From: a virus
Lineage: Duplodnaviria; Heunggongvirae; Uroviricota; Caudoviricetes
Strand: one strand, 5' to 3'
IMG/VR virus record: IMGVR_UViG_2585427735_000018
Span: 1 to 7,614 of that record
Length of the DNA stretch: 7,614 nt
A program made the translations under genes and the position numbers. This document shows, piece by piece, positions 564-1,438 of the stretch (position 1 is its first letter; every line of letters starts with the position of its first letter). Under the pieces are notes generated by a model that was not told the DNA's origin, ran no database searches, and saw only the letters and a list, made by a program, of their open reading frames with translations.

Positions 564-1438
564 AAGCAAGGCTTCTCTATAAACATGCACATCCAAATAT
601 TGTGCAAGTTCAGTATGCTGCTCAATGTGAGAGCAATATCTATATAGCCATGCCATTTTATCATAATGGTTCGCTAAACCAATTAATAAAAAAGATTAAT
701 CTTACGAGCAGGGAGATAATACGGTATTCTATTCAATTTTTAAGTGGGCTTTATCATATACACTCAAAAGGTCTTATGCATTTTGATATAAAACCTAATA
801 ACATCATGATATCAAACAGAAATGAGGCCATGCTATCTGACTTTGGATTGTCTCAGTTAGTCAATGAGGAATCGAGAGCTGCGCCTGAGTTTGGATATCA
901 TTTTCATGTGCCACCGGAATATTTTTCTTTATCAACAAATGATTATAATTTCACATATGACATATATCAGGCAGGATTAACCATATATAGAATGTGTGTT
1001 GGATATGATAATTTTGAAAGAGAAAGATCTGCATTTAGAACGATTGAACAACTCAGAGAGTCGATAATTAATGGCTCCTATCCATTAAAAGAGTATCCTT
1101 CCCACATACATAAAAAATTGATAACAATAGTAAACAAATGCATTCATGTAGATCCAAATGAAAGATATCAATCCGTACTAGACGTACTAAACGATCTCTC
1201 AGCTATAAGTGATGGCGTTCTTGACTGGCGTCTACAGATGACAAAACCAACTAACGGCACATATGAATGGCAAAAAAAGTCTGAGGACGTTATACTGTCT
1301 ATAGTTTTTGACGCAGAAAATTCGTCTACTACTGGTTTTCGTTTATACGATGGTGGGCGGAAAAGGCGTGCTACGAACTTAACAATATCCTCAGGATGTA
1401 CCCCTACAAAACTGTATAGGTTATTAAAGGATAACTGA
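564..1438 (+). pseudogene. Eukaryotic-like (Hanks-type) Ser/Thr protein kinase, N-terminally truncated by the IS1 insertion
   Basis: The frame is open right up to the IS1 end and reads ARLLYKHAHPNIVQVQY... (subdomain IV/V), then HFDIKPNN (catalytic loop), SDFGLS (DFG), HVPPEY (APE-like) and DPNERY (subdomain XI Arg). The glycine loop, VAIK lysine and alphaC Glu are absent. The first in-frame start is GTG at 602. AT-rich, roughly 32% GC by eye. Confidence 0.8.

Follow-up and report, generated by a model that had tools for sequence, protein, structure and literature searches.

The kinase Stk of phage 933W is the closest described counterpart of the gene analysed here. According to passages in three papers (PMC3564112, PMC3681748 and PMC6356687, citing Friedman et al. 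2011), Stk is co-transcribed with cI and aborts infection by HK97, and the same three papers describe it as a tyrosine kinase. One of these passages has the enzyme active upon HK97 infection, with little or no activity in uninfected cells (PMC3681748), and another counts it among the prophage abortive-infection systems (PMC6356687). With an intact stk gene, infection of the HK97 type would thus activate the kinase, and the infected cell would abort the infection. The sequence would not have predicted the reported tyrosine activity, as the catalytic loop has a lysine of the Ser/Thr type (DIKPNN). The gene is 1047 nt long (348 aa), and the annotated order in 933W is pM, cI, L0084, L0083, stk, L0081, tM, nutL and N, where tM is the terminator of the pM transcript.

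In lambda, RexA/RexB hold the corresponding slot, which lies after cI and before oL on the repressor transcript, and the logic is also the same, that of abortive-infection cargo expressed in the lysogen (passages in PMC3564112). The two systems differ in that Rex has no sequence or mechanistic relation to Stk. A sensor and a membrane ion channel make up Rex; Stk, in contrast, is a soluble protein kinase. Hanks-type kinase domains are also found in other anti-phage defence proteins, such as PD-T4-6 and MAD6 (MADS; PADLOC/NCBIfam) and likewise Stk2 of Staphylococcus. Stk resembles MAD6 and PD-T4-6 only in its generic kinase domain; it is the shorter protein, and nothing matches its C-terminal tail. 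In PADLOC, the intact stk allele described below scored E=5.7e-49 with mad6 and E=1.5e-36 with PD-T4-6, and it stayed below the cut-offs of the NCBIfam equivalogs (MAD6, 114 vs 460; PglW, 43 vs 990; PknB_PASTA, 118 vs 450).

We have analysed a stretch of 7,614 nucleotides (the window) from the viral record IMGVR_UViG_2585427735_000018. For the open reading frame (ORF) at 564-1438, the original prediction had proposed a Hanks-type kinase gene truncated by IS1, lying where lambda has rexAB and perhaps homologous to 933W stk. It had suggested a protein or profile search and the recovery of an intact allele from a relative without the IS1, and had named a frame that begins near 602 and was never longer as the outcome that would speak against it. 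We are highly confident that 564-1438 is the 3′ five-sixths of a 933W-type stk gene in a lambdoid E. coli prophage at the lambda attB, interrupted by IS1 and now a non-functional pseudogene. The features on which the following description draws are:

1-563, + strand: right-hand 563 bp of IS1 (IS1 nt 206-768), from Pfam and comparison with IS1A
564-1438, + strand: stk 3′ fragment, pseudogene (nt 173-1047 of 1047; codons 59-348 and the stop codon), from identity with 933W and Pkinase
779-802, + strand: catalytic loop HFDIKPNN (Stk 130-137), aligned with HRDLKPEN of CaMKI
836-847, + strand: SDFG with the Mg-binding DFG motif (Stk 149-152), from the motif and the CaMKI alignment
908-922, + strand: VPPEY, the APE equivalent at the end of the activation segment (Stk 173-177), from the motif and the CaMKI alignment
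1151-1168, + strand: DPNERY with the subdomain XI arginine (Stk 254-259), from the motif and the CaMKI alignment
1172-1435, + strand: C-terminal tail, 88 aa past the Pfam kinase match, which ends at fragment residue 202
1441-1605, + strand: 54-aa ORF, homologue of 933W L0081 and last gene of the cassette (phrog_4063, E=3.4e-38, no function annotated)
1604-1635, + strand: intrinsic terminator, stem 1604-1625 followed by a T-run, equivalent of tM, from the terminator scan and the 933W annotation
1761-1809, + strand: putative oL/pL, two 24-nt operator-like repeats over a promoter-like TTGATA-17-TATTAT (1776-1804), role assigned from position
2082-2288, + strand: KilR-type cell-division inhibitor (PF27398 on the identical L007 gene; phrog_294, E=1.3e-37)
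2364-2660, 2666-3451 and 3448-4128, + strand: gam, bet and exo, the ORFs after kilR

The fragment is 97.0% identical to 933W stk at the DNA level, and 280 of its 290 residues (96.6%) agree with 933W Stk (AAD25427.1), so the homology that had been offered as a guess is borne out. A megablast search against phage records matched 212 of them, mostly Stx-converting phages; the top matches, which include 933W, Stx2 phage I, phage 86 and phi24B, all span window positions 564-1631 at 97.0% identity and are annotated as stk, serine/threonine kinase. Judged by its sequence, the fragment can be regarded as in effect an allele of 933W stk. The likeness extends beyond the gene itself to the downstream partner L0081, the terminator, the upstream 153-aa ORF (L0083, present in intact relatives) and the position after the repressor. 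The window copy differs from the 933W gene in lacking codons 1-58 owing to IS1. The prophage that carries it also differs from 933W: it resides at the lambda attB beside ybhC, has a different S24/HTH repressor and lacks both L0084 (DUF3024) and N, KilR following directly after oL/pL.

Within the fragment, a kinase C-lobe, part of alphaC and the 88-aa C-terminal tail could be recognized. The Pfam Pkinase profile (PF00069) matches it with E=1.5e-38 and a score of 133.1 bits vs a cut-off of 31.7, the intact allele scoring 159.8 bits. This significant kinase-domain match spans profile positions 51-253 of 263, from which it follows that the N-lobe is absent from the fragment, and solved kinases (Nek7, E=7e-21) align with it beginning just past their alphaC Glu. 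The C-lobe motifs named in the prediction (HFDIKPNN, DFG, PPE and the subdomain XI Arg) were all located, so the Hanks-type signatures HxDxKxxN, DFG, an APE-like motif and the subdomain XI arginine are present in full; the ATP-binding elements of such kinases, namely the Gly-rich loop, the VAIK lysine and the alphaC glutamate, are absent from the window ORF. The window copy amounts to a fragment of a kinase and no longer to a kinase. The C-terminal extension also exists as predicted, its length being 88 aa past the Pfam match instead of about 75 aa, and no Pfam domain was found in it. A single-sequence AlphaFold2 model of the fragment was unusable (mean pLDDT 41.4, pTM 0.33), and Rfam gave no RNA family at threshold in the window.

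The sequence to the left of the fragment belongs to IS1, with both the IS1-type DDE transposase (InsB) and the right terminal repeat present. The InsB ORF occupies 45-548 and matches DDE_Tnp_IS1 in Pfam with E=2.3e-78. The IS1 part of the window is 98.9% identical to an annotated IS1A copy, and window positions 541-563 correspond to the right end of this annotated 768-bp element, the right terminal inverted repeat ending at 563. The offset from the same copy sets window base 1 at IS1 nt 206, and the window covers IS1 nt 206-768 only, with the left end, the insA start and the duplication falling outside. Both the right end and the InsB frame of the window copy are typical of IS1, an element of 768 bp that encodes InsA/InsB and produces 9-bp target duplications. 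Homology with 933W stk starts exactly at 564, directly after the last IS1 base, and opens at stk nt 173, which places the IS1 after nt 172, inside codon 58 (Glu58).

In an alignment of the intact allele with CaMKI, QGCFSKV (residues 21-27) corresponds to the Gly-rich loop, LVIK42 to VAIK and NE58ARLL to the alphaC glutamate, and all three elements lie upstream of, or at, the IS1 junction. Since IS1 splits the Glu58 codon, the Gly-rich loop and Lys42 are missing from the ORF. The claim that IS1 removes everything upstream of subdomain IV was thus nearly right, the actual break being in codon 58, at the alphaC Glu of subdomain III. The picture of a gene decapitated by IS1 holds in so far as IS1 abuts the gene, and has to be modified in that a loss of the 5′ part is not visible in the window. 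With the Gly-rich loop, Lys42 and Glu58 absent from the ORF, we strongly infer that ATP binding and exclusion are lost, as had been presumed, and that this stk copy has almost certainly lost its function.

Close relatives of the window reveal what the gene looked like before the break. Three contigs retrieved via the frameshifted int N-terminal ORF of the window (L007, L008 and L009) carry the same prophage at the lambda attB beside ybhC; they are 99.90-99.93% identical to window 564-7614, have no IS1 and encode a 348-aa Stk. The closest, L007 (GCA_018097185.1; 99.93%, 4 mismatches and 1 gap), continues stk for a further 172 nt where the window has IS1, and provides the intact allele from an IS1-less relative that the original prediction had suggested recovering. 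As so similar a prophage has the full gene and no IS1, the window gene was formerly longer and its break is recent; L007 also carries the +1 T frameshift in int of the window, which again indicates a recent IS1 insertion. All 290 residues of the fragment are identical to residues 59-348 of the intact 348-aa allele, which is matched by phrog_2361 ('serine-threonine kinase') with E=1.6e-138. The same allele is joined to the same pL region in 30 further complete E. coli genomes. Exact copies of the window's own structure were also sought: the 42-mer over the right junction has no exact match in genome_contigs, a 38-mer has none in viral_contigs, and none of the complete E. coli genomes of the collection has this structure, the best reaching 86% coverage by way of an unrelated nearby IS1.

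The genomic setting of stk was judged on relatives (933W, L007-L009 and further contexts), the repressor gene itself lying outside the window. In the lineage of the window, the order is S24/HTH repressor (230 aa), 153-aa ORF, stk, 54-aa ORF and terminator, followed by the operator-like repeats with their promoter, kilR (the first gene of the leftward early operon), gam, bet and exo. The order from repressor through 153-aa ORF, stk, 54-aa ORF, terminator, oL-pL and kilR to gam is kept in 10/10 further contexts that were retrieved via the 54-aa downstream ORF. The L0081 homologue and the terminator that mark the location of stk in 933W are both within the window, at 1441-1605 and 1604-1625. The position of stk is that of rexAB in lambda, as the original prediction had proposed: in 933W it has cI on one side and the terminator of the pM transcript on the other, and in the lineage of the window the S24 repressor gene precedes it and the terminator and oL-pL follow. 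Being bounded by the repressor gene and by the terminator of that gene's transcript, the cassette is expected to be expressed in the lysogen.

The GC content is 0.352 over 564-1438, 0.503 over 1800-5100 and 0.545 in the IS1 part, so the view of stk as AT-rich acquired cargo on a backbone of about 50% GC (35.2% vs 50.3%) stands. The AT-rich cassette measures ~1.8 kb and consists of the 153-aa RuvC-like ORF, stk and the 54-aa ORF (35% GC vs 50% for the backbone). On its right side, 933W homology stops at 1631, and homology to stk-less prophages (2EC1, 55989, O104:H4) opens at 1606; this leaves a 26-bp terminator core, 1606-1631, that is common to stk-carrying and stk-less prophages with different repressors and hence marks the right-hand (recombination) edge of the cassette. 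In the stk-less 2EC1, 122 bp after the repressor gene lead to the same terminator. On the left, L004, which has the same allele without IS1, passes from repressor-gene homology to 933W-cassette homology within ~20 bp. Taken together, these left and right homology boundaries show the three-gene cassette to be a portable module, which is placed between the repressor stop codon and the shared 26-bp terminator and occurs behind unrelated repressors in different lambdoid phages.

The first gene of the cassette, the 153-aa ORF (L007:3396-3857), is the homologue of 933W L0083 and overlaps stk by 7 nt. Its PHROG family is phrog_3875, annotated 'RuvC-like Holliday junction resolvase'; the name RuvC family protein is also given in some RefSeq records, and no Pfam match was found. 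As it is invariably accompanied by stk and the 54-aa ORF, the three may work together. The 54-aa ORF is listed in 3329 blocks of the index of the collection.

How the IS1 came to abut stk depends on its left side, which lies outside the window; the window itself shows only IS1 abutting stk. A simple IS1 insertion with a 9-bp target duplication (AAGCAAGGC) would have kept the 5′ 181 nt of stk beyond the IS1, so that stk nt 1-181 would be followed by GGTGATGCTGCC... at the left IS1 end. From this duplication we predicted, before any look-up, a stub of 61 aa ending in YFNEARR, the final Arg and the stop codon coming from the IS1 end, GGTGA. Exactly this 61-aa stub is WP_032241828.1, a 'hypothetical protein [Escherichia coli]' found on 2 contigs; the matching 262-aa C-terminal ORF is likewise on 2 contigs, and the stubs predicted for 8- or 10-bp duplications are absent from the collection. 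The match favours a simple insertion as the probable event in the window's own genome. Alternatively, the 5′ end of stk could have been lost along with the repressor region through an IS1-mediated deletion or rearrangement, in which case the window would show the margin of a prophage remnant and not one side of a split gene. Such an event would fit a window that begins within IS1 with nothing visible to its left, a prophage that is already decaying (frameshifted int), and the precedent of NZ_CP180600.1, in which an IS1X2 follows stk nt 685 and the sequence up to the DUF2528 (L0079/ssb) region is gone. Set against it are the existence in E. coli of the very stub that a simple insertion predicts, WP_032241828.1, and a right flank 99.93% identical to that of the intact sister prophage, which indicates a very recent event. 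We regard deletion as unlikely and prefer simple insertion.

Other lesions in stk were encountered in the course of the analysis. Two Logan contigs, L014 and L015, contain the same prophage (99.86-99.94% identical), and both start (L014:1-29, L015:1-29) with the IS1 left end in reverse complement, which abuts stk at nt 178 (window 569). Their junction is 5 bp from that of the window and the IS1 orientation is opposite (nt 177/178 vs 172/173); int of L014 is intact, unlike that of the window. We considered and rejected a single IS1 event (inversion) as the source of both the window and the L014 junctions, because of the 5-bp offset, the different IS1 ends on the same flank and the difference in int. 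The IS1 of L014/L015 is an independent second insertion in a sister sublineage. In NZ_CP180600.1 (L013:3001-4441), everything from the IS1X2 to the DUF2528 gene is deleted, that is, the rest of stk, L0081, oL/pL and N.

Frameshifts in homopolymer tracts form another group of lesions. An A8 tract at stk nt 134-141, just past Lys42, is A7 in L004 (the window's allele; L004:784-790) and also in two complete genomes with the 933W-type allele, and a second A8 tract (933W-type allele, stk ~nt 298) is A9 in another genome; the records with these homopolymer-tract frameshifts in stk are L004, L010, L011 and L012. The 84-aa stubs of the A7 alleles occur on 23 and 103 contigs, and the two intact alleles on 491 and at least 1000 contigs. 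These A8-tract frameshifts could be real slippage and could in part be sequencing error. The family phrog_14833 (84 positions, 'unknown function') matches Stk residues 1-49 with E=1.7e-29 (L007:3851-3997), and is probably an artefact family built of stk frameshift stubs.

Altogether, stk has been knocked out several times independently. IS1 prefers AT-rich targets, and its target here, stk, has 35% GC; this preference is the simplest explanation of the repeated IS1 hits. That recurrent selection or switching silences a costly suicide kinase, so that the IS1 hit would not be a random accident, we consider distinctly unlikely.

A different question is whether anything is still made from the fragment. 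No stop interrupts the stk frame between 566 and the TGA at 1436-1438, the nearest in-frame stop upstream being at 503, within IS1. The first possible start is a GTG at 602 (278 codons to the end), and an ATG at 650 would give 262 aa. An in-frame InsB-Stk fusion was rejected: InsB stops at 546-548 in another frame, and since the stk frame contains a stop at 503 and offers its first start at 602, no fusion protein is possible. It is very improbable that the truncated ORF is still made (278 aa if started at GTG 602, 262 aa if at ATG 650) and serves as a non-catalytic decoy or dominant-negative protein, its C-lobe and C-terminal tail binding a phage trigger or a second Stk copy. Such ORFs are indeed annotated by automatic gene callers, and the open frame carries no mutation when compared with the intact allele (290/290 residues); however, this identity exists because the insertion is recent, not through selection. 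No Shine-Dalgarno sequence is evident on reading the sequence upstream of GTG 602 or ATG 650, and a scan of the + strand from 400 to 780 found no promoter-like site. IS1 also separates the ORF from the repressor promoter, by no less than 768 bp, and a C-lobe without an N-lobe is unlikely to fold stably. IS1 insertions are, moreover, classically strongly polar.

A native short 'half-kinase' that starts near 602, was never longer and is merely adjoined by IS1 has only the GTG at 602 to recommend it and can be practically dismissed, since 933W homology reaches the last IS1 base, the frame is open from 566, L007-L009 and 10/10 further contexts carry the gene at full length (L007 with its 172 additional nt at this very place), all intact alleles are 348 aa with no intact homologue found that naturally starts near 602, and 80% or more of the gene is matched in 223 of the 224 complete E. 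coli genomes, among 5426, that carry stk.

Beyond the cassette, an additional T at 6862 divides the lambda-type integrase gene (6543-7614) into the ORFs 6543-6881 and 6922-7614. The extra T is common to the window and L007-L009 and absent in L014; with this frameshift, the prophage is probably unable to excise. The sole site at which the window differs from L007 is 6114-6150, with five changes in 37 bp: the T-run after a GC-rich stem is longer than in L007, and the ATG of a 55-aa ORF (L007 9598-9765) is ATA in the window. Recombination could have left such a patch, or the sequence could be of low quality here. On the minus strand, at 5294-5896, there is a second cargo gene that is AT-rich (39% GC), between a TraR/DksA-like gene and xis. 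Its product of 200 aa is apparently membrane-associated (hydrophobic stretches, read by eye) and has no Pfam or NCBIfam match; its C-terminal 88 aa match phrog_1416 (unknown function).

In conclusion, the original prediction is borne out in each element that was tested, the gene is already known, the lesion is an ordinary and inactivating one, the prophage is decaying, and no new mechanism is called for. The window captures a characterised abortive-infection gene shortly after its inactivation by an insertion sequence in a decaying prophage. PADLOC scores the dead fragment strongly (mad6, E=1e-41; PD-T4-6, E=8e-31), and it would count as a defence kinase unless gene integrity is checked. The recurrent knock-outs of stk are a small data point on the cost of suicide-type defences. 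If they were selected, for example after acquisition of an HK97-like trigger phage, or if the A8 tract were a reversible on/off switch, stk would be a natural example of cost-driven turnover of an abortive-infection gene.
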